A stretch of DNA of 64,000 bases, taken from Psilocybe cubensis (taxonomy: Eukaryota). Of this stretch, positions 21,160 to 42,250 are shown one piece after another. Position 1 is the stretch's first letter; the number at the start of each line of letters is the position of its first letter. Position numbers and translations under genes: made by a program. The notes beneath the pieces are model-generated. The model made no database searches. It was given only the letters and a program-made list of their open reading frames with translations, and was not told the DNA's origin. The DNA lies in NCBI GenBank assembly GCA_017499595.2, contig CM039004.1, positions 3,162,001-3,226,000 of the forward strand, in the 5' to 3' direction.

Positions 21160-22065
21160 GAGGGTATGTGGAGTGAGAGGCGAAACATACGTCTTATGAA
21201 TGCATATTTATTAGGACAACGGACCATGGACAGGATTTTGAGCCGCCAAGCCAGGGCTCATCTTGCGACATGATGACTCCGTGCAGAGAAATTTGTGAGC
21301 AAATACTCTCAGGTGGTCATTGGTCCCAATTCAAGTTCCTTCCGCCCAGTTTAATCCAATGCCCCACACCGGGTCAAACGTTCAAACGTGGTTGCCGTTG
21401 CACCTCAAACAAGCGAGTACAACCGACAATTGACACGATTTCGCATAATAAAGGTGGCATTCCGCTTCATTAAGAGTAATGTTCAGGCAAAAAGTCAGCA
21501 GTTGTGTAGAACTTGGGGTCTTTTGGAGTTTGTATAAGGCCTATTTGGGTAAGATGCTCCTAGCCGGCTCTACTTTATTTCTGTCACGGAGATGTTTTGG
21601 AAATCCAAGGCGAAACGTTTCCGAATTGGGGATTCTAGGAAACACGTGAGTTTTTGCATCCGTTGGCATTGGGTACCGCCCCAGGGCCCCAAGCCTTCGA
21701 TATGCCGACGCTCGTTAACTTCCAACGACCTTCTTGCGACTTCTATTATTCAGAACAGGTGTACTTTTGTTAGAACGTTTTAGAACTCCAATGTGTACTT
21801 GATCTAGACTCTAAAACATACTTTTAGGCCGATAGAGCCCGATGCTTTCATCCCCAAATTCACAATCAATATTCTCTCTTATGATGAGGGCACTAGAACG
21901 CATATGATGTAAGTCTTTATCGTCTAGGCCTTTGTTAGGAGTGTTTAGGTCACATGAATCATTCAGCAAAGGACTTACAGCTCTTAGGGTTCCCGCACGA
22001 AGTCCCTCAGACTAATTCAGCCAAAGTTCAGCACGACGAACGTTGAAAAAGTTCATTGTGATTCA

Positions 22066-23503
22066 CTATCCTATTTGAGGTACGAACGAAACGTTCTTCT
22101 TATCCAAAATCTGTAATTTTGGAAGTTGTGCAACAGTTTGGGCAAGTAAATCCTTCAAAGCGATGAGTTAGGGCTTATAGATGAGGGAAAAAGTAAAGTT
22201 AATAAATACCAAAGTGCCTTTGCTATGGTTCTGAACGATATCAACAATCGAGACTGTAAGCTCTTCGAGATGTTTGCATTGCGAAATCGCTCCTGCATTA
22301 TGCCTGCCAAAACACCACGCTCCAAGAGATATCGTCACCAAATTCAAAACTTTCAAGGTACGGGCAACTTTGGGAAGTACTTCATCAAAGAATCTATTGG
22401 CGACGGACTCATCAGAGTGGCTCCACAACCTCGCGCTGTTATCGAATATGATCTGTTCAATCCCATCATATGAAACCAGATAGTCGAGCAACGAATCATC
22501 AACTTCAGTGAGGTTCACGTCTATTTTGGTCAGATAGATGGACTCATTCTTCAAAGTTTCCCAGATCTGAAAAAGGTGAGAGCCATGAGTCGACGTCGTA
22601 AGATTGAAATGAATCGATAGGGATTTCAGTGAGCGCAGGTGATATAGAGTTTCAGCATCCAACAGGGTTCTCATACAACGCAGACGGAGACTTTCAAGGG
22701 GAAGTGGTGGAATAGTTGTATCTTTAGGAAGGATGTCGTGGAGAGACGGCGCTGCCACCGTGGCGGCGTAGTATCCCGAATCGATATCCAAGTAGGTCAT
22801 AGCCGGACTTTGCGACACGACCTTTTCCACCGCAGACGCAACTGCAGCAGCATGGTGACCCGTCAAGAAGATGTTCGTAAGACGTAAAGAGTGTCTTCCT
22901 CCAATCAAACCCAGTTGAGCGGGGAAAAAAGCCGAACACCCGCCACTGCAATCAAAGGAAGCTTCGATACGAGGGTTGAGGCCTATTTGGTCCATAATGG
23001 CCTCGACACTCGACTTGGAATCGCCAGGACAGGTGTACCATCTATGGTCACTGTTAATGTTCCTTTGGCATAGGTGGACAGCGGATGGACTTACGAGAGG
23101 GAACGAACGTTTGACAGCAACGACATAACAGTAGGAAACAAGACAGTAAACCGGTTCTCTTCGTCTAAGCCGGTAGATACGCCATAGTACGAGTTGTAGA
23201 TTATCACGTCTCGTGCATGCTTGACTATTCTTGTCGGCTGTGAAGCAATCGATGAGAGCTGATGATATGTCTTTTCAAAGGACACCGTGTTGATGTCAAT
23301 GAAAAGCTTAGCAAGAACCAATGCTTCAACTGAGCATGAGATGTACTGGGAAACTAGGCTGAGAGATCGATTATCATTTGTATCTAGCTTCAATGCCAGA
23401 TAGATGCATCAGTCGTTGGCATGATAGATTGTAAAAGTATGCGCACCTGCAGACCTATCTCGTATATGGTTTCTGGAGGTAACGACAGAATAGTGGTTGG
23501 CAT
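22066..23503 (-). CDS. F-box / LRR-like protein, divergent tandem paralogue of 19369-21159
   Basis: MPTTILSLPPETIYEIGLQ first exon; shares motifs with the neighbour (IWETLKNESIYL vs IWDTLREERICL; LLDYLVSY vs LLDYLSSY; WCFGRHN vs WCFGKHN); last exon ends ...VPQIG*. Confidence 0.78.
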
Positions 23504-23551
23504 AAGCAGAAGGTGCCCCCTATACCGAACTGTGGTAGTAATTGATAAGTG

Positions 23552-23572
23552 CCTGGACTCTTTAAGTCCAGG
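23552..23572 (-). terminator. Candidate Helitron 3' subterminal hairpin
   Basis: Perfect 8-bp inverted repeat CCTGGACT-CTTTA-AGTCCAGG about 50 bp downstream of the RepHel stop. It is followed on the minus strand by CACTTAT, not a canonical CTRR. Confidence 0.5.
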
Positions 23573-23623
23573 TTTAGGGTGGTAGCATTTTTCTATAAAA
23601 GGAAATAGGTGGTCTCGTTCGGT

Positions 23624-26600
23624 CTAGATTGGTCTAGATTGTTCGACGTCGGACTTCGCTATGTTGTCCAGTCTGTTTAACTCGTTGCGCAGTTCTTCAG
23701 GTAACCGATTGTATATTTTATTCTCAGGGAACCATCGTAGAACTAGTAATCCAGATATGGATTTTACTCTGGAGAGCATTACATATGCACCTTGACCTCT
23801 TGCCGTTAATAAATCAACAATTACCCTATCAAGTGTGCGACCTTGTCCTTTATAGTCTGTGTACGCATACGCTGGTATTAGTGGGACTTGTTTCCGTGTA
23901 AAGCTGTCAAACAATTTGATATGCTTTTGGTATTTAACATCTATTGAAGTCGAAGAAGGGAAAATTGGAACAACATCTTTTTCTAGCCCGTCTACTTGTA
24001 TTCCACAACCTTTGACGTGTACATACACAGCTTTGCAGTATCGACGGTATTTCTCGTCCACTTCATATTTTATGTCTGTGACTATACCCTCAGTGCCATT
24101 GACTATTTTATCATCGAATGCAATGTTTTCTGTTATCATTACTTTCATTCCAATGAAAAGAGGTAGTTTTCCAAGGGCGTCGTTTGTTTTTGTTGAAGGT
24201 AGTCTCCATAATATCTGTTGGAACTCACCTGTAATCCTTTTTTTGTGTCTCTCATCTCGTGAATAGTATATATGTGGTGATATATTTGCTTTTGTTGAAT
24301 GGTACTTGATTAGCTTGGCATTCAGGATGTCTCGTACGGCCTTGTTGCCTACAATGATAGGTGCATCTCTGAACAATGCTAGTGTTTTTGGATTAGAAGC
24401 CTGTTTCTGGATAAGTCTGTTATATATATAATGGTAATCTGACTGTTCATTGTCACTTTTAATATTGTTAATATTACTTCTGCAGAGGCCCAATCTTAGT
24501 CTATCAAGAAAAAGGGCATACTTTATGTCTCTTGCGTGTCTTTCGTTTTTGACTAGTTGTATCACTGTTTTTACTTGTCTCCATAGAAATGCGCCATTTA
24601 GTTGTGATGGTCCTGACACGTTCCGAGCTTCTGCAAAAGACGGGTTCTTCACCAATTCATTTGCATATAATGGCTTTTGTAGAGGGGGTTTTAGTTGTGC
24701 GCAGTCGCCCATAAATATTACATTAATTCCTCCGAATGGTTTATTGCTGTTAACGACGTCATCTCCTTTCCCTTGCCTAATTCTGATAGAGATTTCACTG
24801 AGGAATTTTGCGCTTATCATTGAGGTCTCGTCTATTATTAAAGTTTTTATGTATTTCCAAATTTGAATTAGTTTAAGTTTATTGGGTTTTGCTTGTGACT
24901 GATTTGCATGAGATACTATCAGTGAGTGTAGTGTTTGTCCTCCGATCAGCACTGCCGCTATTCCGGTCGGTGCTCCTAATAATAACTCATTCCTGCGATG
25001 CAAGCGCTCGAATAACATAATCAGACATTTTATCAAATGGGATTTACCTGTACCGCCAACGCCTGCAATATGAATCAGCAACTGTTCCTTGTTGTCGGTT
25101 ATGATATGGTTACCGATGATTCGGAACGCCTTTAGCTGTTCTGGGTTATTTAAAAGTCCCATTTCTTCTGCGATGTTGTTCATGGTGTCAGTGTCTGTTA
25201 TTGAATTGTAATTATGACTTAAATCATACAAATCCTGGAGTATAGCTTGCTTGGCAATAGGTGCATAGTTCCCATTGCGATATCGTTTGGGTGGCGTAGT
25301 TATGTCGTCTGTGTCGGGTTCATGTAGCATTGCACGTTTTCTTTTTGATTTCATGATGGCGCGATGGCTTGCTAACAGATCATCCACTTCATGTGATGTT
25401 AGAGTTTGTTGGTTTACTGGAACTGATTTTTGATATTCCGTGTCCACAGCAGTTTCCGTTGTATCCAGTGGGAGACACATGTCTAGAAATCTTGAAGTTT
25501 CCTCTCCTATGTTATCTATGGAGTCGTGTAAGTTTGTTGTAAAGTCTTCGTTGGGGTTTTCAATGCATTGGAAGGGATCTGGAGAGTATACATCGTTAGG
25601 GTTGAGGGTGTCTGTATTACCTTCCGTGTCTGTTAATATTATATCCTGTACTTCATCGGACACTACATCCTCGGATGTTTTTCCACGTCTGCGCTGCCTG
25701 TGTGCGTCGCGGGCCTCGCTACATTCTGTCAAAGCTTGCATGTTCTGTATGATGCGCGTGTGTTCTAGTTTCATTGATATCTCGTAGTTATGAAATGCGT
25801 CTGTCCATGTTTCTGATGGGGTCTTTAAATCTGATATATCCCTCCACGGTTTGAAGAGGAGTAACATGTCCCTTGCCCAGTCATCTTTTAGTTGATCAGA
25901 CTTCAATGGATTCGGAATAGAAGGGCCTAGTATAATTGGTATACAACTTTTTCTTCTGATTGTCATATAATGGGTGAAATACTCAGGGTGCTCGTCGTTT
26001 AAGAATGATCCTGGACGTACTGCTGTTTCAATGTGTAACATTTCTTTGGTATACCGTTGTTTGATACCCCATGCTACAAAGTCATACAAACACAAATCTA
26101 TGAATTTGTCGTTCGCTGGTCTTAAACAATAGTCCAGTCGTTGGTTGGACGCCGTTATGTCTCTGTCACCCATATTTAACTCAACTGACTCTTCGTTTTC
26201 TTGTTCGTTGGTATTGCTTACGTCGTCTAATGTGCTGTTGTTGGGCGTCTGATTGGATTTAGTGTGATGAGACATGCAAAACCTTCTTATACTGTGCCAT
26301 TTGAGTATAGCAAATTTGTGAGATGTGTAGTGGTCGCCTCCGCCTACTAGATAGCTCATTACTTGTGGTTGTGATATTTCCTGTCTGCCCATCATACTAT
26401 TAACAGCTGTTATGATGGCACCCACTGTTTGATTGTCTGATATTTCTGATTGATTTGCGGACATTTTGCTGTACGCTTTACTTACAGCATACGACAACGC
26501 GGCCATACCTGCATGAACTGGTAGAGATGCCTTTGTTATATAATCAGTAACATAGTACAAGAACGCTTTTGCTGCATCTCCTGACCCTACGAATTTAATG

Positions 26601-29485
26601 TCCATGTTGCACTGCAATAAGAATGATACTATATCAGTGTGTTGCGCTAATCTTGGATGGTGTCTGCGGAGTAGTATCTCTTTTGTTATTTCGTCTAATG
26701 TAGTCTTTTCCAAGGTCTGCCCATTTATACCCATTCTGCAATTATTGTCTGATTTGGATTGACCTCGTTCAAGGTATTTCCAGCACGTTGCTTGGTGCTC
26801 GTGCCATGCGTACTGATGTAAGATTCGCTCCAGGAAGAAGTCGAACTCGAGCCAAAATTGGTTTATATCGGTATAATTTTGTGGGGAAGGTGATTGTATT
26901 ACACCTGGATGAGGATCACCTGTTTCAGTAGATAGTATTCGTCGGGGGTAATCGTTAGTCTGTTGTTCGGATCCTACTGAGTTTGGAAATTCACATTGAA
27001 TTATAGATTCGATCCACATGAACACTCTTGTTTGATAATGTATTGATCGGGTCATTTCATCGCGTAGTTTCTGGGGAGATAAGTGCCCGTGCAACCAAAT
27101 CAGCATGTGGCAATGTAATGTTCCTTTACCTTGTGCCTCGACAGTACCGTAGTACGCTGTACATTTGCCGTATAAACCATTTTCCTCGCGCCCGTATCGT
27201 AATATGACGTTAATGAAGTTGTTTATCATTAGGTCAAAAAAACGTGCACATCCTGAAGGGTTCCGTGCTGCAAAGAGTGATCTTCTCCATTTCGTCCAGT
27301 CCTCTCCTCGTTCGATACTTTCCAATGAAATATCCTCACCCGCTAACAGACGTACGATAGGGTTGTCCACGTCAGACGGGTTGATAGTGATGAATAGTGT
27401 TGGTGTTCCTTTATTATTAATCAATGCCCTGATTTGGTTACGTAGAGTTAGTTTGTAGCCATCGCTCCCGGGTACGTGTTTTGATACCAGTCTGATCGAA
27501 GACAGTAGTCTAAAAGCTTCTTTTTCTTTTGTTTCTGTTGGTTTGTAATACGGATTTTTCTCACATTCTTTGGTTAAGTGACTTAACATGTCTAAATCGA
27601 TATTTAACAGTTCGTTAGCTATTTTCTTGTGTGACGATTGGGATACCGAGAAACGTAGACTCTGGGACACTAGTGCCTTCCGACATATGTTATAGAAAAT
27701 AAACGCGAATTCTGGGTCTTTCGCAAACGGGCTGTCGTCTACTAAAAGAAGATGTTTGAGTTGTTCCTCCATGCTTATTTTAATCTTTCGTCCGGGATGG
27801 TAAAACCCTCCGATACCCCAAGGGTCCAGATGGGGGAATAACCATGTCAAGATCGATGGATTTTGAAAGTCAGGTACCATACTAGATCCTGTACCAGAAG
27901 CCAGGAATGGTTTCCCAGTGAGACATCTCTCCAAAGCAGTTGATTTCATAGTCAGGAATGCCTGTGGTGAGTTGTCTCCAGATGTATATCCTACATTTTC
28001 CATCAGTAATTCATTGTATAATTCGTCCTTTGAATTTTCATCCACATTTCGACATGTATAATCTGCGACGGCTGAGCTGATGGCGTCGTTATCGGTCATA
28101 GCGCCTATATGTACGGCGTGTGGTATACCCTCGTCTTTGTCGTTGTCAAACAAAAGTCTCATATTCTCTTCGCTGTACTCGGTGCTCGCAGAGTATTCTG
28201 GATTTTCGGTTAATAGAAAGTGTATTATTGTCTTTACCCTCGATCTTCGGACTAAGGTAGGTTTATATCTGTGAATGGTCTTACGGTTAGGTAGATCTTT
28301 ACCGATGAATATAGCACACATTGTGTCCCTTATCGTGTCAGACGCAGGTGGTATAACATTGTTCATGCGTATCACGTCTAGCGGTGATACTAGAACGTTT
28401 CCTCTTATACCTTTCCTAGCTCGACTCAACGTATTTTCGTTGTCGTCTTTGTCTTCTGTTTGTGTGGTGTGGTTCAATCTGCACGTGATTACACTGGACC
28501 GTGCTCGCGAACATAACATCCTGTCGAAGATAGTTGAATGTTCTATCGCCGTCTTCACGGTTTCTGGTAAACTTTCAATTCCATAATACATCCAGTTACA
28601 CAAAGCAAATTTAGGCATAGTGAAGGCCGCTAGTGCTTTGTCACATTTTGGACAGAGACATAGCTTGCCAATACGATCACGGTATTCCATGCCTTTATAA
28701 TGCAGTATGGCCTTTCTGTAAATCTTGATATCATAAGTCTTAGGTAAAATTGAATCTGGCAAGTGTGGATTTTGTAGTAGATTCAGCTTGGTATTGTCTG
28801 GGTTTACCCATATACAATCGCGCTTGAAAAACCTCAAAGCGCATGCCGCGCATACTACATTGGACAGTCTGTCCGTAGACATTTCTTGTTTCCATTCCCG
28901 TATAATTTTTAATTTTTCATCTTTCCCGATAGGTTTAAGATGATCTTCGTCGATGGGGACCGCTTTAACTCGATTGGGTTGCTGTGATTCTGTAATCGTA
29001 TCCGCGCAGTCTATACCAGGATTGTCTTGTGGTGGGTTGTTCAAATTTTCTTTGGCAACAGTTCGTCTTTCAAAATCGAAATTGCCACACCGTTCTTCGA
29101 AAATACTGAATATATGTTGACGTGGTCTTGCCATGCATTTGAAAACATATATCAAGTTACTGCATTTGCTACTGCATTGGTGTTCAAATATCTTAGCGAA
29201 TAGTTTGGGTTTAGTTAAACGGGAAAATTGTATGCCATGGGAATCGGCTATGGCTTTCATGTCATTCATAGTAAAATATCTGAACCAGAACATCAGTACA
29301 GAGATACTGACAGTGAATACGAGATTTGTAGTGTCATTTATGTGTTTTATAGCGTCATCATGATAAAGCCATATTGTGGTGAACTTGTAATATTCGTTGA
29401 AACGTAACACTTTAAGCTTTTCTACATATGGACGGCTATATTCGGGTTTGTACCTGTAGATATCGATATCTGAAATTTCGTCCAA
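23624..29485 (-). CDS. Helitron Rep/Helicase (HUH endonuclease + PIF1-family SF1B helicase), uninterrupted ~1950 aa
   Basis: Rep motifs PTLFITINP, YYGTVEAQGKGTLHCHMLIW (HUH), FLYYVTDYITK; helicase motifs GVGGTGKS, IIDETSM, GDCAQLKP, TDYKGQGRTL, AYVMLSR; N-terminal CxxC pairs. The ORF-track start is TTG, so the true start is uncertain. Confidence 0.96.
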   Translation of the reverse strand: MDEISDIDIYRYKPEYSRPYVEKLKVLRFNEYYKFTTIWLYHDDAIKHINDTTNLVFTVSISVLMFWFRYFTMNDMKAIADSHGIQFSRLTKPKLFAKIFEHQCSSKCSNLIYVFKCMARPRQHIFSIFEERCGNFDFERRTVAKENLNNPPQDNPGIDCADTITESQQPNRVKAVPIDEDHLKPIGKDEKLKIIREWKQEMSTDRLSNVVCAACALRFFKRDCIWVNPDNTKLNLLQNPHLPDSILPKTYDIKIYRKAILHYKGMEYRDRIGKLCLCPKCDKALAAFTMPKFALCNWMYYGIESLPETVKTAIEHSTIFDRMLCSRARSSVITCRLNHTTQTEDKDDNENTLSRARKGIRGNVLVSPLDVIRMNNVIPPASDTIRDTMCAIFIGKDLPNRKTIHRYKPTLVRRSRVKTIIHFLLTENPEYSASTEYSEENMRLLFDNDKDEGIPHAVHIGAMTDNDAISSAVADYTCRNVDENSKDELYNELLMENVGYTSGDNSPQAFLTMKSTALERCLTGKPFLASGTGSSMVPDFQNPSILTWLFPHLDPWGIGGFYHPGRKIKISMEEQLKHLLLVDDSPFAKDPEFAFIFYNICRKALVSQSLRFSVSQSSHKKIANELLNIDLDMLSHLTKECEKNPYYKPTETKEKEAFRLLSSIRLVSKHVPGSDGYKLTLRNQIRALINNKGTPTLFITINPSDVDNPIVRLLAGEDISLESIERGEDWTKWRRSLFAARNPSGCARFFDLMINNFINVILRYGREENGLYGKCTAYYGTVEAQGKGTLHCHMLIWLHGHLSPQKLRDEMTRSIHYQTRVFMWIESIIQCEFPNSVGSEQQTNDYPRRILSTETGDPHPGVIQSPSPQNYTDINQFWLEFDFFLERILHQYAWHEHQATCWKYLERGQSKSDNNCRMGINGQTLEKTTLDEITKEILLRRHHPRLAQHTDIVSFLLQCNMDIKFVGSGDAAKAFLYYVTDYITKASLPVHAGMAALSYAVSKAYSKMSANQSEISDNQTVGAIITAVNSMMGRQEISQPQVMSYLVGGGDHYTSHKFAILKWHSIRRFCMSHHTKSNQTPNNSTLDDVSNTNEQENEESVELNMGDRDITASNQRLDYCLRPANDKFIDLCLYDFVAWGIKQRYTKEMLHIETAVRPGSFLNDEHPEYFTHYMTIRRKSCIPIILGPSIPNPLKSDQLKDDWARDMLLLFKPWRDISDLKTPSETWTDAFHNYEISMKLEHTRIIQNMQALTECSEARDAHRQRRRGKTSEDVVSDEVQDIILTDTEGNTDTLNPNDVYSPDPFQCIENPNEDFTTNLHDSIDNIGEETSRFLDMCLPLDTTETAVDTEYQKSVPVNQQTLTSHEVDDLLASHRAIMKSKRKRAMLHEPDTDDITTPPKRYRNGNYAPIAKQAILQDLYDLSHNYNSITDTDTMNNIAEEMGLLNNPEQLKAFRIIGNHIITDNKEQLLIHIAGVGGTGKSHLIKCLIMLFERLHRRNELLLGAPTGIAAVLIGGQTLHSLIVSHANQSQAKPNKLKLIQIWKYIKTLIIDETSMISAKFLSEISIRIRQGKGDDVVNSNKPFGGINVIFMGDCAQLKPPLQKPLYANELVKNPSFAEARNVSGPSQLNGAFLWRQVKTVIQLVKNERHARDIKYALFLDRLRLGLCRSNINNIKSDNEQSDYHYIYNRLIQKQASNPKTLALFRDAPIIVGNKAVRDILNAKLIKYHSTKANISPHIYYSRDERHKKRITGEFQQILWRLPSTKTNDALGKLPLFIGMKVMITENIAFDDKIVNGTEGIVTDIKYEVDEKYRRYCKAVYVHVKGCGIQVDGLEKDVVPIFPSSTSIDVKYQKHIKLFDSFTRKQVPLIPAYAYTDYKGQGRTLDRVIVDLLTARGQGAYVMLSRVKSISGLLVLRWFPENKIYNRLPEELRNELNRLDNIAKSDVEQSRPI

Positions 29486-29901
29486 CGCGTGAAATCGGAA
29501 TTAATCCGTGTCAATTTAAATTCATTTAATATCAAGTTTCAAGTTTAACCAGATTTGAATTGGATACAAGGTGACGAATCGAATTTTTCATCAGCGATAA
29601 TTCCCATAGGTAAAACGATTACTTACCGCGTTGCAGAGTCGACGCTTTCAACGACGATACCGTGTTTTGTGTGTTAATATAAGTGGTCTGCGTTGTGTAA
29701 TTTGACAGATAGTTCTACTATAAGTTTTTGTAAGCGCTCACCATTCTTCAATATATCTGGAAATGGGTCTGTCGGGGCGTTGGTGTTGATTTTATCTGTT
29801 CTGGTCTTTTGTCTTATTTAAATAGGGTGTACTCGTTTATATAGAGTTTTGTCTGTGTATGGTATCTGGTACTGTTACTGAAATTCGTTCAATGATTCTT
29901 T

Positions 29902-30311
29902 AATTGGGTCCAGTCACGAACTGTTCATGTAACACCAAGTAGGCGACACTTTGTCCGCCGTGTGTTGTTATTTTGTTTGGTTGTCAGATCATATGAGTAA
30001 TAGCAACTATCACGCTAACTAGTCAGCACTTTTACCCATCGTGGGAGGAAGTGTACGTGTTTATGTTTACGTGATGACGTATGCAAGTATTACTGTCACT
30101 TAGCTTGTGTTTAATTGGGTCCAGTCACGAACTGCTCACGTAACACCAAGTAAGCAACACTTTGTCCGCCGTGTGTTGTTATTTTGTTTGGTTGTCAGAT
30201 CATATGAGTAATAGCAACTATCACGCTAACTAGCCAGCACTTTTACCCATCGTGGGAGGAAGTGTACGTGCTTATGTTTACGTGATGATGTATGCAAGTC
30301 TTAGCTCGTGT
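29902..30311. repeat. Tandem duplication, ~211-bp period, 2 copies
   Basis: AATTGGGTCCAGTCACGAACTG... starts at 29902 and again at 30113; the copies differ by scattered substitutions and a short indel near the end. Confidence 0.95.
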
Positions 30312-30423
30312 TGTAAGTGACGGTGTATTGCATTCTGAGTCTCTTTATGTGTAAACCGCGACGTAGATTTAAGGTCAGGTCGTCAGACAGAGTCAGTGTG
30401 CGCAAGTTCACAGCTCCATTGTT

Positions 30424-31737
30424 ATGGCGAATCTTGGTGAGCGCCTCAAATGTCGCGGTTTGTTGTGTTTGTAATGTTATGATAGAGATTCATAGGTTCT
30501 CTCCCGCTCGAATTCTTATTCTTGATGCGCAGGAGCGACTACTCGCTAAGGATTCGCGGCGTTTTGTTCTCTTTCCCATTCGGTACATTAAGGTGTTGTT
30601 GTTAATGTAACATTTTTTCCTTCGGGACTAACTTTGTTTGAATTGCCTTGGAACTGCCCTGTTCAGATTTGGAAAGCATACTTGCATGCTGTGACGACGT
30701 TATGGGAAGCACGTTGTGCTGGTTTATCACGTGACTCTAAGGATTGGACTGAGTGTCTGTCATTCCAACAACGATGCGGTGGCATCTTCTTTTTCAAACT
30801 TTCTATTGCTTCTCATGGGATACATAAGCGACTATTGGATATAATCTCCAAAGAAATTACAGTCCCAGAAGCACATTGCTATTTCAGTTTCCAGTCGGTC
30901 AAGTGGGTGTGAATTTTTTATACATGGATTTATCTCAGGATTCGATTAACAACGTTCTAACAGTGAAAACGTCCACCAGGAGGCGATGGCCAAGATTACG
31001 CACGGTCTCACAGGAATTCGAATGGACGATTGCGTCGATGAATGGGAACTCTTGCGTCCAAAGGAAAAATTTATGAATATTTGGACGAGATCTTCCGTGT
31101 ATCCTTTCTCTGAGAGGTTGCTCGTTTTTATATTCATTCAAGGAATATTTGGTATTTCTCTGTCCCGGCTTCTACAATGGTTTTCTGGCAAAGATTACCT
31201 CCCAACTATGGTATCTACTTACACCCGGATCTTCAATGACAGGGAATGTCATGTAGACTTTGTCTCGCTGCTTTTTTATCATTTGAAAAGGCGTCCGTTA
31301 ACCAGTTTTGTCAACGAATTCGTCGGGACCATTGTTAAAATCGAAAAAAAATTCGGCAGTGGTATGATAATGGTTTGTTTTTTAATGGTCCGTGTCTGAT
31401 TAGCATGCTGAATATTATAGATTTGCTGGACCTTTCCGAGATAGACATTCCATTAGACGACCTGAATCGGTACGTGGAATGCAAAGCAGACGCCCTTCTG
31501 GTGTCTCTTGGGTACAAGCAATTGTACGGTACATGTAACAAAGTATGACATTGTTCGTCTGAATTTGGGATTCAGTTGACGAGTTTTTAGGGGATCGATG
31601 ATCTTATCCCTATCGTCCCTGGGGAACTGAAAGCTGGTTTTTTTCTCGAGGAGATGGCGCTGGCGTATATCCCCCCAACTATGGAAGACGCTATTTTAGA
31701 CGGACAGTTCGGTAATCATCTCCTTGACCTTTCTTGA
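30424..31737 (+). CDS. Divergent ribonucleotide reductase small subunit (R2/RNR2)-like protein, probably catalytically inactive; 6 exons, open frame throughout
   Basis: Spliced MANLE...ERLLAKDSRRFVLFPIRYIK|IWKAYLHAVTTLWEA...IASHGIHKRLL...VPEAHCYFSFQSVN|ENVHQEAMAKI...FSERLLVFIFIQGIFG...FNDRECHVDFVSLLFYHLKRRP...IEKKFGS|DLL...YVECKADALLVSLG...|...KAGFFLEEMALAY...LDLS*; collinear with eukaryotic R2 along its length. Confidence 0.88.
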
Positions 31738-32038
31738 ACATGTTATATGGTTTATTCATACTTTTTGTTGATGTAATATCTATGTACCCGCTACTGAAGG
31801 GTAAATCCTAGACACCGTGGAATAATACAACTTCCTGTTGAAATTAAACCCTTGTCATAGAGTTCTGGATGGGAAGGTGAATACTGTTTCATTCCAATTA
31901 TCCGTCTGTGGTGATTTTGCGCTCTTTAGACTGTATGCCCAGTATCAATCTCGGAAAACTCCAAGCGCGTGGCAATCTATCAGTTCATATTACTGTGACT
32001 ATCCACCCAACCAATGTCCACTTATTATGCTGTGACTA

Positions 32039-32195
32039 ATGTACTCCCACCCCGCGCCCGCGCAGGCGCAGGCGGCACAGCCCAAAGCACCTGAAAACGA
32101 GCTCTTCTCGTTCGACTTCCACGCACCGTCTCTGGTGCAGAACACGGCTGTGATGGAGCAGCCGAAGAAAGACGTGAAGCAGAATATTTTGTCGT
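32039..32195 (+). pseudogene. Captured internal fragment of an ArfGAP-like host gene
   Basis: GC-richer patch encoding ENELFSFDFHAP...QPKKDVKQNILS, recalled as resembling the C-terminal region of basidiomycete ArfGAPs; no upstream domain present. Confidence 0.5.
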
Positions 32196-32329
32196 TTACA
32201 TTAATCAGCGTTTGTACGCTGCCTCTGTTTTCTTGTGATTATGATAGACATTAAAATTTCATGTAGACTGTAGGTTGTACAGACTTTCTCATGCTTGGAT
32301 TAGGGTATGTACCTCAATGGGTATCTTGG

Positions 32330-34197
32330 TATCGCTGTGCTTTTCTATACCGCTTCACTGGCGGACTCGTGTTACTCTAGGAGAAGATGGTATGTATGAA
32401 GATGTTCTACGCTTTTGGATGGACAAAGACAAAGAAGGCAACACACCCGACGCGTTGCAGGAGGTTATCGAGCATCTCATGTACCAAGGAAAGGCCTGTC
32501 CTCATCTATACTCGCTTGTTCTGAGGTTCTTGACCTCGACGCCGGAGCTGCTTAACCGACATCAAACTGGTTTGAAGGACATCCTGGAGCATATCGACGA
32601 CGTGCAATTGATTCTCCTTGGGAGTCTTACAAGTTTTGAGTCGAAATGGAGTGGCGAGTGTCGGTTTAATGAAGCAATGGTTGATCAAGACGATCAAGGA
32701 AAGTAGGAGTGAAATTCAGAATGTAAGTTTCCCTTTCTATTTAATCTGTTCGTTGTTTTTCCTTTCGTAGGATCAAGCTCTCACGAAATCGTATCGTCTG
32801 GAGATCGTTGACAGGATAAAGCAATTTGCTGAATTGACAAACACAGAAGAGTCTCGGGTGTTCTATGACAAGGTGCTCCAGTTACATCGACCAGCTCGAT
32901 CTTCCCAGCGTGCACTTCATGTGTAACCGTTCTTATCATCCATGGTATGTATTGTGTGTATATCTTCTTCTGCGTGTCTTCTGTACGTGTATTCCTCTAA
33001 TCGCCATTCGCTTGCTCGTAGGTACATCGCGGACGGGCACTGGAAAATGTCAGTGCAATGTCAGTGCGGTCAGTGCATGTCAGTGCATACCACAGCAATG
33101 TCAGTGTAAACTGCAGTGATGTCAGTGCAGTGTCAGTGCATGTTTCAAATCATCTATAAATTGGTCAGGGTGTGTCAGTGCGTCCTGGGTTATGTTAGTG
33201 CGTTGGTTAGTTCATCGTGTGGTGGCAAAGTTTTTACTTGTTAGATTGAAAGTCGTGGGCCGTGAGAAAGTTAACTTAGGGAGGATTAAAACATACAGTC
33301 TCGGAATTTATGGGCCAGACATGGCTAAATAACAAGATATAGAAGTAGACATATATTTTCTACATTTTCAAGTAATGATCCGGTGTACTAAATCAAGCAT
33401 AGATGTTGGAAAATGAATGAATTATGCTGGAATCATTAGATAGACGCCTCAGAGTATCCCTGTGTATAAATGATCCAATATGCTTGTTTGACAATGATTT
33501 GGGATCATACTTGGCTGCAGGCGCAACAATGCTTTGAAATATTGGCCTTAGCTTGGGTGCGGTTTTTTAGTAGGGAGGACGTCCCTATGACACAGCTAAA
33601 AGGGAAAGGGAACTAGAAAGTCCCATCGGTGCATCCTAGTTGAGCAGGTCTTTGGGACAGTTGATGGACCAGAGGTAATTCATACCAGTCTACCTACCTA
33701 CCATTGTGTTCTTCGTTTGAAATAAAAGATAACATGATTATAAGGTAAAAATAATGTCAGTGCATCGTCAGTGCACCATTACTGAAAGTCAGTTTATGTC
33801 AGTGCATGTGAGTGCACCGTCAGTGCATGTGAGTGCATCGTCAGTGCATGTAAGTGCACCGTCAGTGCATGTCAGTGCACAGTCAGTGCAAATGCTTGGC
33901 GGTCAGTGCATGTGTCAGTGCATCAACTCTTGGCAGTCAGTGTTAAAATAATTCTAGGAGGATACTAGATTTCCAGACACTTAAAATCCGGTCAAAATCC
34001 ATCTAAGTAATCCTGCAATAAACATAGTTTTATTGTATAGAAGTACAGACTTCAATTTTTTCACAAATCCTAAGTGATGTCAGTGCATGTCAGTGCATAG
34101 ACATTATATTGTCAGTGAATGTCAGTGCCGACGTGCACTTACATGCACTGACATGCACTGACATTTCTTGTTGCCCATCGCGGACAACGAAGTCGGT
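32330..34197 (+). pseudogene. VPS11: Captured VPS11/PEP5 3' fragment (with introns), disrupted and interrupted by a MITE
   Basis: GLVLL*EK.GMYEDVLRFWMD...HLYSLVLRFLTSTPELL...LQVLSRNGVASVGLMKQWL...|DQALTKSYRLE...QLDLPSVHFMCNRSYH...|YIAD[MITE]NEV; a TGG>TAG stop and frameshifts are present. Confidence 0.85.
33035..34176. mobile_element. Non-autonomous Mutator/Foldback-like DNA transposon (1142 bp) with 9-bp TSD
   Basis: Perfect TSD ATCGCGGAC at 33026-33034 and 34177-34185; imperfect TIRs GGGCA(N4-5)AAATGTCAGTGCA; arrays of TCAGTGCA(TG) repeats near both ends and at 33755-33940. Confidence 0.92.
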
Positions 34198-35007
34198 AAT
34201 AACATGGAGATTTGTTTGAAGGGCGGTGGTGTTATACCAACGTCTGTCTGTCCGGAATGCGGTGAAGCTAATAGAGGAGTGTTTCACATGTTGCTTGACA
34301 CAAATACTGTAGATTCACGTTTCGAAGGAATCCTCAGGGACATGGGCGTCACTGATCGAGTTTTCTACTGACACAGACAGTGTATCTCATGACAAACGTG
34401 GTCTTATATTTCTGAACCTGGTGAAATGATAGTTTAAATAAATAAATGTCATATGCAATGAAGCTCATGTACTTTGTACTGAATCGCGAACGATCGCAAA
34501 GCAACCTCCATCAACTTAAATAATTCCCGTGATTGAAAGGAAGTGGGTTTTGTGGTTTTTTTTTTAATCGCCAAATTTTGGCGCGTTGGGTCGTGTCTCT
34601 GCAACCATTTACATAAACTCATACGTTTCACGGTCAAATTCGGTCCGCTGATCCTCTTTTTCCTTGTGCAGTTTCCGTGTGGCAATGTTTTGTTTCACGA
34701 ACTCTTTCGTTGTTGACCCATGTATCGTTGCTTATGGTCTGCTTTTATATTGAGATAGCCTCCAGGCCTGTGTCTGTCCCGTTTGACTCTGTAAATACCC
34801 ATTCTTTACTGTTTCGCTTTCCTTTAAATTTCTACGCTTGTTCTTCGTTGTATCGCTGCTATTGACCATTTTTAACAGTGACATCACTCCTAACCTATCT
34901 CTTACGTCTGCTGTGCGATTTGTCGTATTGTCGGAGGAGTTAGATGTCGACTCAGTCATTGGCGATAGTTAGTTGCCTGTTTGTGAAGTGTATAAGGTGC
35001 GTGTCTG

Positions 35008-35057
35008 TTTTTTTTTTTTTTTTTTTAGTTGTATTCTAATCCTCAATACCTGATTAT

Positions 35058-35109
<52 letters not shown>

Positions 35110-35193
35110 CTACAAATTGCTTAATTACATGCCTTACAAAATCCAATTTCATACCTACGAATTGCTTAATCCCATGCCTTACAACAATATTCA
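35008..35193. repeat. Poly(T) tracts (T19 at 35008-35026, T49 at 35059-35107) followed by a 45-bp tandem duplication
   Basis: Directly visible; CCTAC(A/G)AATTGCTTAAT... at 35109 and 35154. Confidence 0.85.
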
Positions 35194-38100
35194 ATAACAT
35201 GCATTTTACCTCTCTGAAAAGTATGATTTGTATACTCTGCCAAACAGTCGTTGGCATTGCCGGTGTCGAACGGTGTCACCGTGAATTATAAAATAGGGGC
35301 ATGTTTACTACTGACGCTAATTCCAAACAAACGGACCGCGTCGGATTTGACTGCGGGCCCCAAGCATGATTTTTTTTCCACCATTTTTTCGAGGTCGATT
35401 GTCGTTCAGTCTCAGCGACATCGATCTCAGTACCACTAATCATCGTTTACGATATTGCACGCCATAGTCACTCCAAAAGCTTCATCATCAACCCTTAGAA
35501 TCCTCAGAAGGGACTTTACTCGAACCGGCAAAAGATGATCGTCACTGTACAGGAAGGCTAGCACTTGTCTACCTAGACCTACCACCTTGCAACATATCAT
35601 ATCATATACACGTACACCGAGGCAACATCTTCGCAGGCCATATACTACAACAGCGACCGGGCAGTACCGTCATCTTCCGACACTTCCCCACCCAACACGA
35701 ATATGAACCAGAACCGGAATCAGAAATAAATCCCATAACATTCGCTGACCCTCGTCGGCCCGACCTGTTCTACTATTACACTCCCGTTCCAATGCCATTC
35801 TCACCCGTGCTCCCGGCCTTCGCACTGTCATATTTTGATACTCTTCCCTGCTAGTGCTGTTGGCGGGGAGGGCTCCGAAGCATTGATTGGGTGGCTTCCT
35901 GTACAGACGACTGTCGAAGGAGGAGTGAAGGGAGGGGCAATACATGGAGAAGGGCAGGGTTCAGCGTTGGATGATTTCATAGGGAACGGTAAGTCTTGTA
36001 TTCAATTTCCTCTCTGCTTGAGCGCGTAGAAAGTGCGGCGGGTGCGGTTTATGCTGCCCTGCACCCCACCCTTTCTGTTTATCTGAAAACAAGAAAATTC
36101 TTAACTGATACTCTGATATCGATACGATGAAGCAACAGACAAATTTCTCTCGTTCCTGCACATCACCATCCAAACTGTACTTGAACAGGGACAAGACGAT
36201 ATTCGGAGAGATGCCGCTATTGCCCATGGGAATGGCTGGATGCATATTGGCGGTAGGTCTCTTTGCTTCCATTCCTTAAACCTATTTCAGTTCTTCGAAC
36301 CGAGACCCCACTTAAATACGGGTCAAAACTCATGTTTATTTCGCCTATGTATGTGCGGTGAATAGATCAGCGGAATATTCAAGTACTGGGACGCGTCGGT
36401 GATCCAGACGAAATCTTAGTGTCTGTGCTCGTGCAGGATGGAAAGGTGAATGATTCAATGATAATCTCTCTTCACGTCGCTCCCTTTAAAGCCACTTCCA
36501 ATCATCCCCATATCCATGACCGTATGCTGACCCAACAATTTTTCCCTCTCCAAACACCCAGATTGTACCAGGCACATACGATGCCATGCCTTCATATCTG
36601 ATATGCACCGTCGATGGTGTGTTGCAGTTCATTCTCGTGCTCGTTGGATGTCTTAGGGAAGTCTTGGTCCAGTCTTGGGCCGCTACTGCTGATGTAGACC
36701 AGGCGTATTCAGTGGGATGAGCACCTTAAACCTGGAGCCAAAAGCTGACGTGATTCGAAAATGTTGGTAACCGGACTTGAATGGCAAAGCGACGAGCGTG
36801 CCGCTGCAAATGGAAATGTCCACTTCACCTTCAACCGTCACCATCACCACCACCCCTCTTCAAGGTTCCAACAAGACACCACCAGTCCCCTTCAAGGCTC
36901 TAAAAACATTTACATGGACTCGAATCGTACGGTAGTATTGTTTCGACGGACAATATAAACGAGCTCTGCGCGGGTTAGTCTATATGGATGTGGGCTACAC
37001 AACAGACACCAGCGGTACGTACCTGGATGTACTACAACCAACCATCGCTAACACATCCTTCAAAACTTCAACGATACACCCGCGTGGACTCGACCCGCGA
37101 CCGTATACTGGACGATAAACGGGTCAGTGTGTATAAATGGACACTGCAGACATATCTGGTATGCACCTGCATTACATACCAAACCACTCTCCCTAATACA
37201 CTCAGAACACCGCCAATCGTCTGTTCAGCGCCGTCCGGTCATGACTGACGGAGGTGTACCTGTATTATGTTAGTGATACTGGACTCGGTCTCTCAGCATG
37301 GCAGGTATACACCTGCATTCCATACCCTCAACACCCACTCAGAACCCTACCCGTTGAGTGTCTGTCGCCGTTTTCCACCACTGCTGATGGACTGTTCAGT
37401 TAGTCCACTTCACTTACTATACTCGATAATGTGTGCTGCGCCGCAGCTTGGAAGTCGCGTCGGGAATGTCAAGGTTCGTGCAGATCAGCTGGTATAATTA
37501 ATCACTATCTAGTCACCCTACCCGTATCTGCTAATCCCACCAAGCACAGCAATTGCAGTGTCCTTCCACCCATCCCTCAACTGGTCAGACTGGGCTTGTT
37601 GGTGATGACGGTAATCAGACGGAGATCCGTGTATAGGCAGTAACGTGTTTATTGACCTACAGGTGTGGATGCAAAGTCAATCATCATGCGAGGAGACAAA
37701 GGACGTATAGGGTACGTATCTTTTCTACTGGTCATTCGGGTTAACGACGCGTCCCATGTTCAATAACACGCAGTTCGACTGTGAGTCGGGCGCGGTAGGC
37801 CACGTCGTATCCCAGTATTGTGCTGGGTGACATGTAAGAGGCTGAGACTCACCTGACCAGCATGCTAGCGTGGCGCGATCCGTCGTCAAGTGCATTCTCC
37901 GTGGGGTGCTCCTTGGACAACAGGTGTCGTGTCAGAGTCAGCAATAGCAGAAAGACGATGACAAACCGTGACTTACTAATCAGCCGCGGCGCACCACGTC
38001 CGGGTGGCACAGAGGACCGAACATTATCAAGGCGCGTCAGTACTGCCTCCGCAACGGGACATCACAGCACAGTACCGCATTGTTAGGAATCGATGATAGA

Positions 38101-38938
38101 CGATGGACGGAATGAGTAGTCAAATCGATAATGTCATCGCAGTTGGGAAGCGGATAGATTGGGAGCCGCGTGCACGACAAACAGGAAGGTAGAAAGGTAG
38201 TAAAGCGATAGCGGCAACTGGTTTATGCTGATTGTTGATGGAAGGGTATCAGCACAGCAGTGATGCTGATCCTTGTCGTCGAAAAGGTATTCCCAGTATG
38301 ACTCTCACAACATCGACAATGCTAAATGGTATAGAGTGTCCAGTTTAACGGTAAAATGATCCATAATGATGTATATCGTCGGGAGTATAATGATATGACT
38401 AACTCCTCTCGGTGCCAAGTACGTAAGGTACAGTACAATAGAATTAGACTGCAATGCGATGTGCTGGGCAAAACCTTTAGCTGTCACGGAAGCTGAGTAC
38501 CGCGCGCGGTGTGTAGACCTTCTACTAGACACGAGACAGAACTGTGACGGCGGTGTGTAGACCTCCTATGGATATCCCATCATGAAAATTTCCTTCAATG
38601 TAATGAGATTAGTCCATCATTGCAGTGAACATTGTACAGGACAGTATCGACACATTACGGAAGTTTACCAACACTTCTCGTCCGAAATGACTGGTCTTCT
38701 CGTCTACTCACTGTCACTTGTATACGCGTAATAAGCGCGCCTTTACATCCTCCGCGTACCGATAGTCTCTTGTTACATAATGGCCAATGTGCTCGGACTA
38801 TCCCTTGTCATCCAATTCAATGCTCGACGTCAACATTTCGGAACTGAAGTCAGACGGTTTCTCACGTCAGACGGTAGTTCATCTTAACTCACACGGCAAC
38901 CACGCGATCGAATGACAAGGGTCAAGGCCAAAGGTCTA

Positions 38939-39915
38939 CAGTTGAGGACAATCAAAGACATCAATTTTTTTGCACGAATTATGTAGTCTATGACACACAT
39001 GTAGGGTGCCTCGAAACTGTTTTAATAGGTAATACTACGTCTAATTAAACGATTTGCACGAGCAGATTTTTCAGATTCAACTTTTTTGGAAAAAATTTCC
39101 CAAAAAATTTGGCGGTGGTCAAAAAAATTCGCTAAATTCTCGAAAAATTCATTTTTAGATAGCTTTTGATATTCTGGGTTCGCGCCTGAAATATCAAAAA
39201 AAATTATCGAGCCGTTCCGCTTAAATAAATTCGGCAAGATGCCACCTAACGGCAGACCACCCAGGCAAATGAGGAACATTTCCGGCCAAAAACAATAACT
39301 TCCTCAATCTTCTTTTCTCTAAAGGCCATGAATGCATTTTGAGCGAAAATTCTGTTGCAAATTGAACCCTGTAGAACTGGCAAGCTATTATACTTTTTAG
39401 CTATGGCTATTCATATTCATAAACTATGTCTATAGTGCTGTGGATGACTGTGCAATACTGCTATTGTGAAGTTGAAAAGAAGACATTTCAAGAAGCAGCT
39501 AGGATATAGAATCTGAGCAAAAAAACACATCTTGAAGCACTTCCAAAGGATGTTCCACCAAAAATATTCGTTGTTTCATCAATTGCTCCTGGCGTTTTAC
39601 GGGTGCTCATCTTGATTTGACGGCGAGTACATCGGCATGGGCAGTGAGAAAGCAAAAGTAGGCCCGCCGATTTTTCAGCGAGTCATTTGTGGTAAATTTT
39701 GGAGTCGCCGAGCTGCCCGGTACCAAGTAACATGACTATATTTTGAAAAATTTTGGCCAAAAAATTTGGCGGTGGTCAAAACCTCGTGGGAATTTTACGA
39801 AAAGTGTGTTTTTAGACGCTATTTGACCGTCCGAGTTTGAATCCGTCGTTAGTTTTTGCCAGAAAATTCGCGTTCCTGAGATACAAAATTTGATGTCTTT
39901 GATTGTCCTCAACTA
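38939..39915. mobile_element. Tc1/mariner-type MITE (977 bp), TA TSD
   Basis: TA|CAGTTGAGGACAATCAAAGACATCAA ... TTGATGTCTTTGATTGTCCTCAACTA|TA (terminal G>A); internal direct repeat AAAAAATTTGGCGGTGGTCAAA at ~39102 and ~39759. Confidence 0.92.
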
Positions 39916-40339
39916 TACGTCCCAGCGGGCTCTAGATGAAGCATCATCACAGAACCATCTAATGAAACGAGTATCATCGATGACGTCATACGCCACCCAT
40001 TGACCAAATTTGATAAACCCTTCTAGAATATTACATTGATAGGCGGCGATAGTGAGACGGCAAACCCACGGACCTTTATACGTCAGCATCTGGAAAGGGA
40101 ATAGTTAAGTAATGAAGAGGCTAGTGGGAAGGGACGAAGTCATAAGGATATAGACAAAGAGGAATACCCTTTGCCCTCACAATCGGTTCTTCAAGAAGTT
40201 AACGCTATACGAGCAAGTTGCCGTCGGACCATGCAATGGATAGCTTCCGATAGGCAGATACCAGTAACGTCATCATGGTATGAATTACCAATTACCGCAA
40301 GGTTTCTGTCAGTCATATCGGTTCATGATCAGTATAGAA

Positions 40340-42250
40340 AATCACCTGAATAAGCCTTGTAATACATCAATGACTTGATAGTAGATAGTATTTACACAAA
40401 TCCTATTCTCAACTATGATTTCTATCTATTTCTGATAGGAAAAGTGGTTGTATAAACAAATATTTTAACTGTAATACAGATATACATAATGACATTTGAA
40501 TTCAAATTAAATCCACAAAATATAAATTCAATAAATTTGTCACCATGCCACTGACATATATCATTATTACTTAAACGCTAATATGAACACACCACATTTA
40601 TTTAAATAATACACTAGAACCAACACACATTCAATATGACTTTCTAAATCTTGCTGTTAAATAGCTTCTAAAGGTCGTGCATGTCTACATATTGTATCAG
40701 ACATATACAATGACATACTTTACTATTTGGTTTAATATCCAATTAAAAGGATACTAACTGCAAATAGTTGCACCAAATCCGTAAAGTACGTACAATGTAT
40801 ATTTCTGGACAATAGATATGCACAATATCAACATCATAGAAATGAATAGGATCTTAGCGTCACAATAAAACACCTATTCTTGATAACTATATAAAAAAAA
40901 ACAAGATCAGATTCTACGTAACTGATAAATATCAATTATATAGAATTATACATACAATGTGAAACAGGGTAATGATACTATAATATAGTTACTTTCTGAT
41001 GACATACAAGTGTGTTTCTAAACTAAAAATAAAATGTGTTAAACAAATTTGTTATAAAAAGAGAAAAGTAAAAACATAACTATAAACACCTTTTTATTCG
41101 ACAAGTATAATTATCATAATAGAGAGTAGAAAAAAATCAAAGGAGGCTGTGAATGTTGGTATAATGTACATTGCATACTGTCTAATATATTTGTTCAAAA
41201 GTAAAGATGACGCCATCATGAGGAATCATTCTAAAAATACAATGTGTTTCATCATATTACGCCACTATGAGCAAAAGATCCTGAGTAATTTTAATTTGAT
41301 TCTAGACTATAGAAAAAGACTCTGTGTCTAATTACGTATAAAACACAATTCAAAAAATGAAGTTATTTGCTATTAAATTAAACTATTTTATGTAAGACTA
41401 TATTAATATGCAGCCCACCAATGAGTGTATATCCGAATAGTCATTGCCGGAATCAAGAAGTTTAATAGTAATAAAGTTGAACCCTGTTTCTAATTCAATG
41501 AAATTAAATCCTATTTAAATTCGGACGTAAATAAAACGTAACAACTATAGAAGTTTCTATTCGAATTCAAAAACAACAGATCTTAGGATTATAATATTTC
41601 AGTATAAAACTGGGTTGTAACAACCTAATAGTCATTGACATTGGTCAAAGCTTTACTACAGCTTTTCTGTCTTTAAACAACATCATGGTCGAAAATACTG
41701 AAATAAACAATGCATCTCTTGGCCAAAACCAGCAACATTCAGACAATATACAATTCCATGTATGTTTAATCCATGCTCAATTCTCTACTTTAACCATTGG
41801 TTATACTCATACATTTTCTAGATTGGAACTAAAGTTTTTTTCTTTAGTCAAGGTGGGAAAGTCATATACGGAACAGTCAAGGACACGACCATTAGAGATG
41901 TATGTTGTTTGTCTAATAAAACATGACCACTGACAAATATCTTTTTTAAAGGGAACGCTCTATGTAATTATAGAACCAGACAACCTTCATCTCTGCCATA
42001 GGCGCATATGTTTACCGTGAGTGTTCATTCCAATATTTAATATTATTATATATACTTATACAACGACCGTTATAAGAGTATTTGGTGTACTTAAAGTATA
42101 ACTGGTGTAAAACTCTGTATAGCCACGTACAAAGTCTTCCTGTAGTCACCGCTTTCAGATAACGACAGAATAAATCTTGATATTAACATGTGCACAAAAA
42201 TATAACGTGACAGTACTAAATAGGAGTACGCGTCGAAAAGTCATTATACT
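40340..42250. other. Strongly AT-rich non-coding tract
   Basis: For example 13 G+C in 60 nt at 40441-40500; no credible ORF. Confidence 0.7.

Follow-up and report, generated by a model that had tools for sequence, protein, structure and literature searches.

Why does a fungal transposon stand head-to-head with a gene for the small subunit (R2) of ribonucleotide reductase (RNR) that has lost the residues for its own radical chemistry? This question was raised by a locus of Psilocybe cubensis, located in a stretch of 64,000 nucleotides (assembly GCA_017499595.2, contig CM039004.1, positions 3,162,001 to 3,226,000), which is called the window throughout. An R2-like gene (30424-31737, plus strand) was found there next to the RepHel transposase gene of a Helitron. 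The explanation that we favor with moderate confidence is that the R2 gene is cargo of Helitron2/HLE2 elements, with the P. cubensis form being a selected non-radical pseudo-enzyme that tunes the RNR of the host. The same R2-RepHel pairing was found conserved across related elements, which is the new observation here, and the R2 genes of these relatives exist both in catalytically complete and in degenerate form.

The gene for the ligand-deficient R2 homologue is composed of six exons (30424-30436, 30486-30592, 30667-30902, 30964-31361, 31421-31542 and 31591-31737, stop codon included), separated by five introns of 48-74 nt with GT..AG borders throughout. The joined exons comprise 341 codons, and their translation was found identical, letter for letter, to an annotated protein of 340 amino acids (P0001) carrying the NCBI name 'Ribonucleoside-diphosphate reductase small chain [Psilocybe cubensis]'. 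The Pfam profile PF00268 matched P0001 with 146.7 bits (cut-off 33.6) at profile positions 1-276 of 281, compared to 407.5 bits for the canonical R2 of Agaricus bisporus (P0155). A preliminary description of this DNA had proposed a six-exon open frame collinear with eukaryotic R2, and both the spliced translation and the nearly full-length profile match agree with it. The closest match in the PDB was yeast Rnr2 (E = 2.8e-38, HMMER). Using an alignment of 121 rows, AlphaFold2 modelled an R2 bundle with a disordered tail (pLDDT 85.3, pTM 0.83). Foldseek placed human RRM2 (3olj) on top of the matches for this model (E = 1.8e-13, target-normalised TM 0.91, rmsd 1.8), with p53R2, mouse R2 and yeast Rnr2/Rnr4 among the other leading ones.

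As a homologue of R2, P0001 is full-length and collinear, but its diiron-tyrosyl site is destroyed. Three of the six metal ligands and the radical tyrosine are missing. The ligand Asp is changed to His (ASDG reads ASHG in the HMMER and MAFFT alignments), the radical Tyr to Met127 (ENIHSExY reads ENVHQEAM), the second-site Glu to Gln (VEGIFF reads IQGIFG) and the bridging Glu to Arg (RDEGxH reads NDRECH), while Glu120, His123 and His215 are retained. These are the four changes (D>H, Y>M, E>Q, E>R) that had been listed initially, and they were recovered with both programs; the register of the Asp varied in a larger MAFFT alignment (A2) made from 117 of the 149 best library matches other than P0004 and three other proteins. 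There, the first motif was shifted by one column with Ser under the Asp, and no Asp was present in either register. The column of the radical Tyr carried Tyr in 110 of the 120 rows other than P0001. Among these 120 rows, 26 (e.g. P0051, P0152, P0070 and P0144) were themselves ligand-deficient. Two proteins of this alignment showed the same pair of Glu>Gln and Glu>Arg changes as P0001 with the Tyr kept, and they form a clade of their own.

A full replacement of the R1-binding tail, also proposed in the preliminary description, was contradicted by the alignment: AILDGQF of P0001 can still be aligned to the canonical F-x-[LI]-D-x-D-F, the protein runs on for 8 residues past the Phe, and the tail Tyr is retained. 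What P0001 lacks is the R1-binding heptapeptide with its Phe at the extreme C-terminus; a free C-terminal Phe has a role in this tail. A set of 94 canonical rows shows 40 columns with a conservation of at least 90%, and P0001 agrees with 21 of them. Losses were distributed unevenly, with 11 of 70 majority-consensus positions kept in the site-forming helices versus 57 of 104 elsewhere (p = 1.3e-7, for helix windows picked post hoc, after the per-window counts had been seen).

On the other side of the gene pair, the RepHel transposase is encoded by a frame at 23624-29500 (minus strand) of 1958 codons from stop to stop, with the first Met at 29293 and no stop in frame. Pfam matches were obtained for DUF6570 (1e-24, residues 294-448), Helitron_like_N (3e-36) and PIF1 (1.2e-22), so that the Rep (Helitron_like_N) and PIF1-type helicase domains reside in one frame. 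DUF6570 has been proposed as marker of the HLE2 (Helitron2/Helentron) group in the consulted sections of PMC11417382. Both genes are oriented divergently, with 924 bp between the edge of the RepHel frame and the R2 start. The intergenic region (29501-30423) might act as shared promoter of both genes. It contains a tandem duplication of 194-nt units (29899-30092 and 30110-30303, 96% identical), across which the contigs of two sequencing runs break.

The preliminary description had suggested to look for R2 homologues head-to-head with RepHel elsewhere. A RepHel search of metagenome contigs yielded 21 loci. Four of them (L001, L004, L009 and L011) encode a RepHel 43-48% identical to that of the window and offer 10 kb of upstream flank each. 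At all four, tblastn and Pfam revealed an oppositely oriented R2 gene, situated 0.6-2 kb upstream of RepHel; the window shows the same arrangement. As L009 and L011 are 99.4% identical throughout, they were counted as one element, and the 4/4 loci of the clade with upstream flank represent three distinct elements. No R2 gene was found at any of three more distant loci (L007, L012 and L014) within their 3-6 kb of upstream flank; for L002 and L003 the flank was too short to show presence or absence. Because the same head-to-head pairing recurs in 4/4 related loci, the R2-like gene is genuinely linked to the Helitron and not a chance neighbor. Stable capture has been defined by a domain whose position is conserved among most copies of a family (PMC11417382, sections consulted). 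The R2-like gene, with the same domain, position and orientation in the related elements, is stably captured cargo in this sense. R2 was the only cargo common to the window and the related loci. L001 (3451-4607, plus strand) and L011 (1876-2912, minus strand) further share an open frame of about 270 amino acids (37% identity, E = 7e-50, no Pfam family), which lies beyond the R2 3' end in opposite relative orientations and is absent from the window and L004. In L009, a 1.5-kb insertion (14310-15797) breaks RepHel relative to L011.

The R2 genes of these elements occur in two states. In those of L001 and L011 none of the seven key residues (the six metal ligands plus the radical Tyr) is changed, the electron-transfer residues are kept as well, and the C-terminus reads ...FEL, unlike the host tail. 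They are 71% identical to each other and 64-66% identical to Agaricomycete R2, compared to 79% between the R2 of Agaricus and Scleroderma. The R2 of L004 is degenerate (Asp>Glu, Glu>Lys, Tyr>Leu and Glu>Leu), with at most 37% identity to R2s. It is open over four core exons and was analyzed up to the conserved ...ANP, its last exon not being assignable. The RepHel of L004 contains two in-frame stops.

Several features are common to the R2 genes of all these elements. Four introns were found at identical alignment columns with phases 0, 2, 1 and 0 in P0001, L001 and L011, three of which were verified in L004; P0001 has one additional intron after codon 4. In all four Helitron R2s, about 20-30 residues precede the conserved RFV.FP strand, where host R2s are 80-160 residues longer. 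Two columns without variation among four host-type R2s carry a different residue in the Helitron R2s, the same in all four, and five further changes, including Val>Lys, are common to P0001 and L004. In the RepHel tree, the R2-bearing elements formed a clade with 100/100 support, which splits into the window and L004 (82/83, a moderate support) on the one side and L001 with L011 and L005 (100/99), the latter two being grouped together, on the other side. This split of the transposases is mirrored by the split between dead and intact R2. Holding the four Helitron R2s together in a tree gave a log-likelihood 57.5 above that of the free quick tree (p-AU 0.934), a gain which, with long branches involved, may not be taken as proof of a clade. 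In free trees P0001 formed a very long branch of 2.15 to 6 changes per column versus 0.06-0.18 for Agaricomycete R2. The simplest reading would be that R2 was captured once and that catalysis was lost once, in the common ancestor of the elements of the window and L004. Overall, R2 has the appearance of an old cargo that Helitrons have stably retained, with the P. cubensis copy as a fast-evolving pseudo-enzyme derivative with open frame. Judged by these comparisons, the P. cubensis gene is not a one-off capture, being placed as a degenerate branch of a cargo family with catalytically complete members.

Searches for closer relatives of P0001 gave the same picture of strong divergence. Among 1.84 billion cluster representatives nothing above 32% identity was found besides its own cluster. 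The best library matches were eukaryotic R2s of a Kwoniella yeast, mammals and fish, and a Kazachstania protein, which is annotated as RNR2-like and shows an Rnr4-type ligand pattern. Word-index protein searches returned only P. cubensis clusters above 32%; the search against shorter proteins missed even P. cubensis exon fragments and is uninformative for other species. P0001 as query had no match in metagenome or viral contigs. Using Foldseek against viral models, R2s of baculo-, herpes-, nima-, asfar-like and giant viruses came out on top, none of them above 27% identity to P0001, and a viral origin of P0001 is not indicated.

Is the gene kept by selection? For L001 versus L011, dN was 0.26 for R2 and 0.32 for RepHel. 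Synonymous sites were saturated, as they were in every available pair, and no omega is given. Because dN of R2 lies below that of RepHel and all seven key residues are kept, purifying selection has acted on the cargo of L001 and L011 during its association with RepHel. For the dead form, 300 substitution-only simulations were started from the present P0001 coding sequence, leaving out indels and the ten splice dinucleotides. Drift to 31% identity (0.62 changes per site) resulted in a mean of 11.8 stops with a minimum of 4, corresponding to a Poisson P(0) of 8e-6. According to this model, the open frame of P0001 cannot be the result of neutral decay. Because these simulations coincide with the uneven loss pattern and the confident fold, P0001 shows a frame kept by selection over most of its branch. 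The dead form would have persisted as an open frame across a RepHel divergence to 48% identity. The P. cubensis copies are too alike to report on selection at present. A selected pseudo-enzyme had been proposed from the outset on the basis of the open frame next to decayed VPS11/ArfGAP fragments. The first part of this argument is strengthened by the simulations; the fragments were not found. The 104 six-frame open reading frames (ORFs) of 31750-42000, the downstream protein P0002 and two ORFs at 42276-44863 gave no significant Pfam match, a PDB search with P0002 gave nothing either, and a zinc-finger pattern search yielded one unrelated match.

The R2-like gene of the window belongs to a group of near-identical copies. 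At least five R2-like loci are annotated on five contig records of one assembly. P0001 is represented by three KAH accessions on three contig records (three identical products), a fused gene model with a single A19V change (P0003) lies on another contig record, and a truncated gene model (P0004) on one further record. The P. cubensis entries named 'ribonucleoside-diphosphate reductase small chain' which match P0001, P0003 and P0004 are transposon genes and not the host enzyme. P0002, a protein of 204 amino acids of no recognizable family, is encoded by two exons downstream of the R2-like gene (32039-32706, plus strand). It had no Pfam match, no PDB match (best E = 0.032) and none in the ESM Atlas. 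Four accessions of P0002 were found, each numerically adjacent to an R2-like accession, in addition to the fused model P0003. The unit of R2-like gene and P0002 is nearly identical at its at least five loci, and these near-identical copies show its recent amplification. An exact look-up of RepHel with five candidate starts found none in the protein collection, and RepHel adjacency at the other four loci is unreadable from accession numbers. In run X11, raw reads covered the left flank to a depth of about 35, compared to about 50 for both 23.8-32.5 kb and 35.8-38.5 kb. A repeated or hemizygous unit may reach further to the right (nested repeats: 33035-34176 and 38937-39917). For two further runs (X8, X9), contig depth does not reflect copy number and was not interpreted in this way.

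One end of the element was located at 23550|23551 from contig breaks, with a terminal hairpin, within the region 23551-23623 (minus strand) beside the RepHel stop. DNA contigs of the two independent runs X8 and X9 matched the left flank to 23550 and continued with unlike sequence, and separate contigs covered 23609-29975 and 30241-32542 with 3-10 differences each. The perfect hairpin (23552-23572, 8-bp stem, 5-nt loop) lies 52 nt past the RepHel stop codon; its 8-mer occurs 4 times in the window versus 1.8 expected. In L011 and L005 similarity also stops 13-14 nt after the RepHel stop. The second end was not found in the window. Inspection of 36500-36960 revealed nothing of this kind, and the terminal 80 nt had no inverted-repeat partner in the window beyond 10-mers.

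How could such a gene serve a Helitron? According to our favored explanation, the ancestor of the clade would have taken up a complete, intron-containing fungal R2 gene, as suggested by shared gene structure and co-phylogeny, and the gene would have retained its place just upstream of RepHel, in opposite orientation, ever since. In the branch of L001 and L009/L011 its product is probably a functional beta subunit, which would associate with host R1 and may feed deoxynucleoside triphosphates (dNTPs) to rolling-circle replication. In the branch of P. cubensis and L004 the catalytic site would have been lost, followed by very fast evolution during which frame, introns and R2 fold were kept. The dead form would be a pseudo-enzyme selected for something other than radical chemistry. 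P0001 most likely acts via inherited R2 contacts, forming a dimer with host R2 as Rnr4 does with Rnr2 and/or docking on R1 through its partly kept tail, and these contacts might tune host RNR in favor of the transposon. A decoy, modulator or anti-defence role, as raised in the preliminary description, is hypothetical. For a heterodimer of P0001 and Agaricus R2, ESMFold2 predicted an interface with an ipSAE of 0.89, the best of 3 controls reaching 0.00. Among solved complexes, 51 of 78 attain the mark used for this score, compared to 2 of 108 among mismatched pairs. Three runs agreed in at least 94% of the contacts, with a partner pLDDT of at least 84. As R2 dimers including Rnr2-Rnr4 (1jk0) are already solved, this prediction may show only family likeness. 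A bolder version, possible but on the doubtful side in our judgment, would see the clade as resembling small DNA viruses: a working, N-terminally shorn RNR beta raising dNTPs independent of the host cell cycle would have been turned in P. cubensis and L004 into a non-catalytic beta-prime capturing or re-tuning host RNR.

Several observations weigh against a selected, RNR-tuning cargo protein, and the alternatives build on them. The R2 cargo may have been useful for a long time in a non-catalytic or weakly catalytic form and now be a functionless relic too young to have collected stops. The P. cubensis copies are so nearly identical that their intactness is not independent evidence, and two of the five annotated ones carry deviating models (P0003 fused, P0004 truncated), which could mean damage there. 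The sister copy L004 is dead by its two RepHel stops, and its R2 may be decaying as well. All relatives outside P. cubensis in the protein collections are at most 32% identical to P0001, too distant for a dN/dS of the dead form. In a run guessed to be RNA (X13), spliced contigs covered 20500-23550 (minus strand) and depth was 0 over 23835-32505, which says nothing on expression since possession of the element by this strain is not established. Nevertheless, we consider such a dead passenger unlikely. The adjoining RepHel is intact over its 1958 codons and the unit was recently amplified. A branch of 2-6 substitutions per site went without stop, frameshift or any loss among the 10 splice dinucleotides, and the loss of ligands is common in kind to L004 across RepHel proteins of 48% identity. 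The remodelled site may instead serve a new enzyme, in which His90, Glu120 and His123 would form a 2-His-1-carboxylate at site 1, with site 2 abolished, for another reaction or for ligand binding as in R2lox. The ligand positions read H-E-H / Q-R-H, and the far stronger change of the site helices fits remodelling as well as loss. This idea appears very unlikely: L004 lost a different set of residues, leaving no conserved new site across the dead forms, NCBIfam R2lox models had no match to P0001 at E <= 0.001, and metal binding and site geometry are hypothetical. For the tuning of host RNR itself, conservation of the predicted interface with Agaricus R2 did not exceed that of the remaining core (11 of 28 versus 76 of 242 positions, p = 0.40), which also counts against our explanation.

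A second group of objections concerns the history of the gene. With the far end of the element unmapped, membership of R2 in the mobile unit rests on conserved linkage and co-repetition and not on two mapped termini, and the read depth of about 50 both over the Helitron and over 35.8-38.5 kb would fit a unit larger than the Helitron. One could imagine a diverged host paralogue in a segmental duplication, beside which the Helitron inserted by chance. This is scarcely credible in view of the head-to-head pairing in three further distinct elements with RepHel proteins 43-48% identical, the co-divergence of RepHel and R2, and the absence of an orthologue of such a paralogue from any other annotated fungus searched. 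Alternatively, each Helitron may have taken the RNR2 gene of its own host, leaving the P. cubensis gene without a cargo history. Helitrons capture genes repeatedly (PMC11417382, sections consulted). Free trees fail to place P0001 or L004, putting both as very long branches outside all R2s. Their grouping with L001 and L011 rests on constrained-tree likelihood, introns and synteny, and L001, L004 and L009/L011 stem from two related metagenome records and may represent one host genome. Independent captures are nevertheless highly improbable. All elements agree in the position, orientation and intron set of the gene and have the short N-terminus and the derived residues in common, the derived ...FEL C-terminus is shared by L001 and L011, and the constrained single-clade tree beats the free tree. 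Moreover, the R2s of L001 and L011 are closer to each other than either is to Agaricomycete R2, at the identities given above.

Several known systems resemble the selected Helitron cargo proposed here. The HELIANO survey of 404 genomes reported stably captured HLE genes with 20 domains, including RPA-like, OTU and endonuclease domains (PMC11417382, sections consulted). As described there, a host-derived gene occupies a conserved spot relative to RepHel across a family. Like RPA and OTU in HLE2, R2 lies upstream of RepHel, and like RPA it has a host function related to DNA replication. Unlike the genes captured there, the cargo is an RNR small subunit, present in two states, a catalytic-type and a dead one. 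The term 'ribonucleot' does not occur in the main text of the survey, and RNR is not among the 19 of 20 captured domains named there, the full list being given in its Supplementary Table S11. The nearest fungal precedents in the literature consulted were the cap genes of Pleurotus HELPO1 and the Helitron2 elements of Fusarium. In the sections of PMC4289320 consulted, the 'cap' genes of Pleurotus ostreatus HELPO1, also from an Agaricomycete, are likewise complete genes with no close host parent which are amplified with RepHel. They are found downstream of RepHel, are of unknown origin and function, and HELPO1 has CTRR-type ends, in contrast to the window element with an upstream cargo of clear R2 origin and a RepHel with the HLE2 marker DUF6570. 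Yeast Rnr4 (1jk0, 1sms; PMC9431586, sections consulted) similarly has an R2 fold without several iron ligands, with no tyrosyl radical possible. It acts in the active Rnr2-Rnr4 heterodimer, and P0001 is likewise predicted to pair with a canonical R2. However, Rnr4 is encoded by a gene of the host in Saccharomycetes, the lost residues differ, and Rnr4-like rows keep the Tyr at the radical position where P0001 has Met. P0001 as an Rnr4 orthologue was rejected, since these rows (the Kazachstania protein and relatives) form a separate clade with 99 SH-aLRT.

Large DNA viruses and phages characteristically carry RNR genes. Like these, the Helitron is a mobile replicating element with its own R2, but here a transposon and not a virus. 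Betaherpesviruses keep a catalytically dead homologue of the RNR large subunit with a documented role outside RNR. This is likewise a dead RNR subunit kept by a mobile element; however, it is a large subunit of an animal virus, compared to a small subunit of a fungal transposon. Our literature search yielded no report of a Helitron or another eukaryotic DNA transposon lineage stably carrying an RNR subunit, and nothing on this gene under Psilocybe Helitrons, P. cubensis RNR or RNR pseudoenzymes. A transposon lineage seems to have kept its own gene for DNA precursors, as large DNA viruses do. If true, manipulation of dNTP supply extends from viruses to transposons. The clade further offers a natural paired experiment with the same cargo gene in a catalytic-type and in a dead but conserved form, making the role of the pseudo-R2 directly testable.

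Further features were observed around the Helitron. A host gene (20500-23550, minus strand) adjoins the element end. Seven of its introns are spliced out in the X13 contigs (CT..AC when read on the plus strand), and no Pfam family was found for its large ORFs. To the left of it, a 505-codon open frame (16297-17814, plus strand) reached 25.8 bits for a GRF zinc finger versus a Pfam threshold of 25.9. A run of 100 N (54285-54384) represents an assembly gap. The segments 34223-34458 and 35568-35797 were about 91-94% identical to contigs, one of them of 7.1 kb, from a run guessed to be RNA; they look like fragments of genes sited elsewhere in the genome, and no family was matched. Between them, 34505-35288 showed a presence/absence polymorphism, with 13 X11 raw reads and one X9 contig skipping 782 nt and carrying 24 other letters. 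A high-copy foldback or miniature inverted-repeat transposable element (MITE)-like element was found at 33035-34176. Its terminal inverted repeats are imperfect, and a GTCAGTGCAT-type motif is present subterminally in many copies. Its raw-read depth was 4-10x that of the flanks, and hundreds of reads had loose ends at 33034/33035 and 34176. A second small element at 38937-39917 is bordered by 33-nt inverted repeats (94% complementary) and showed raised depth, with the contigs of two runs breaking at 38965.

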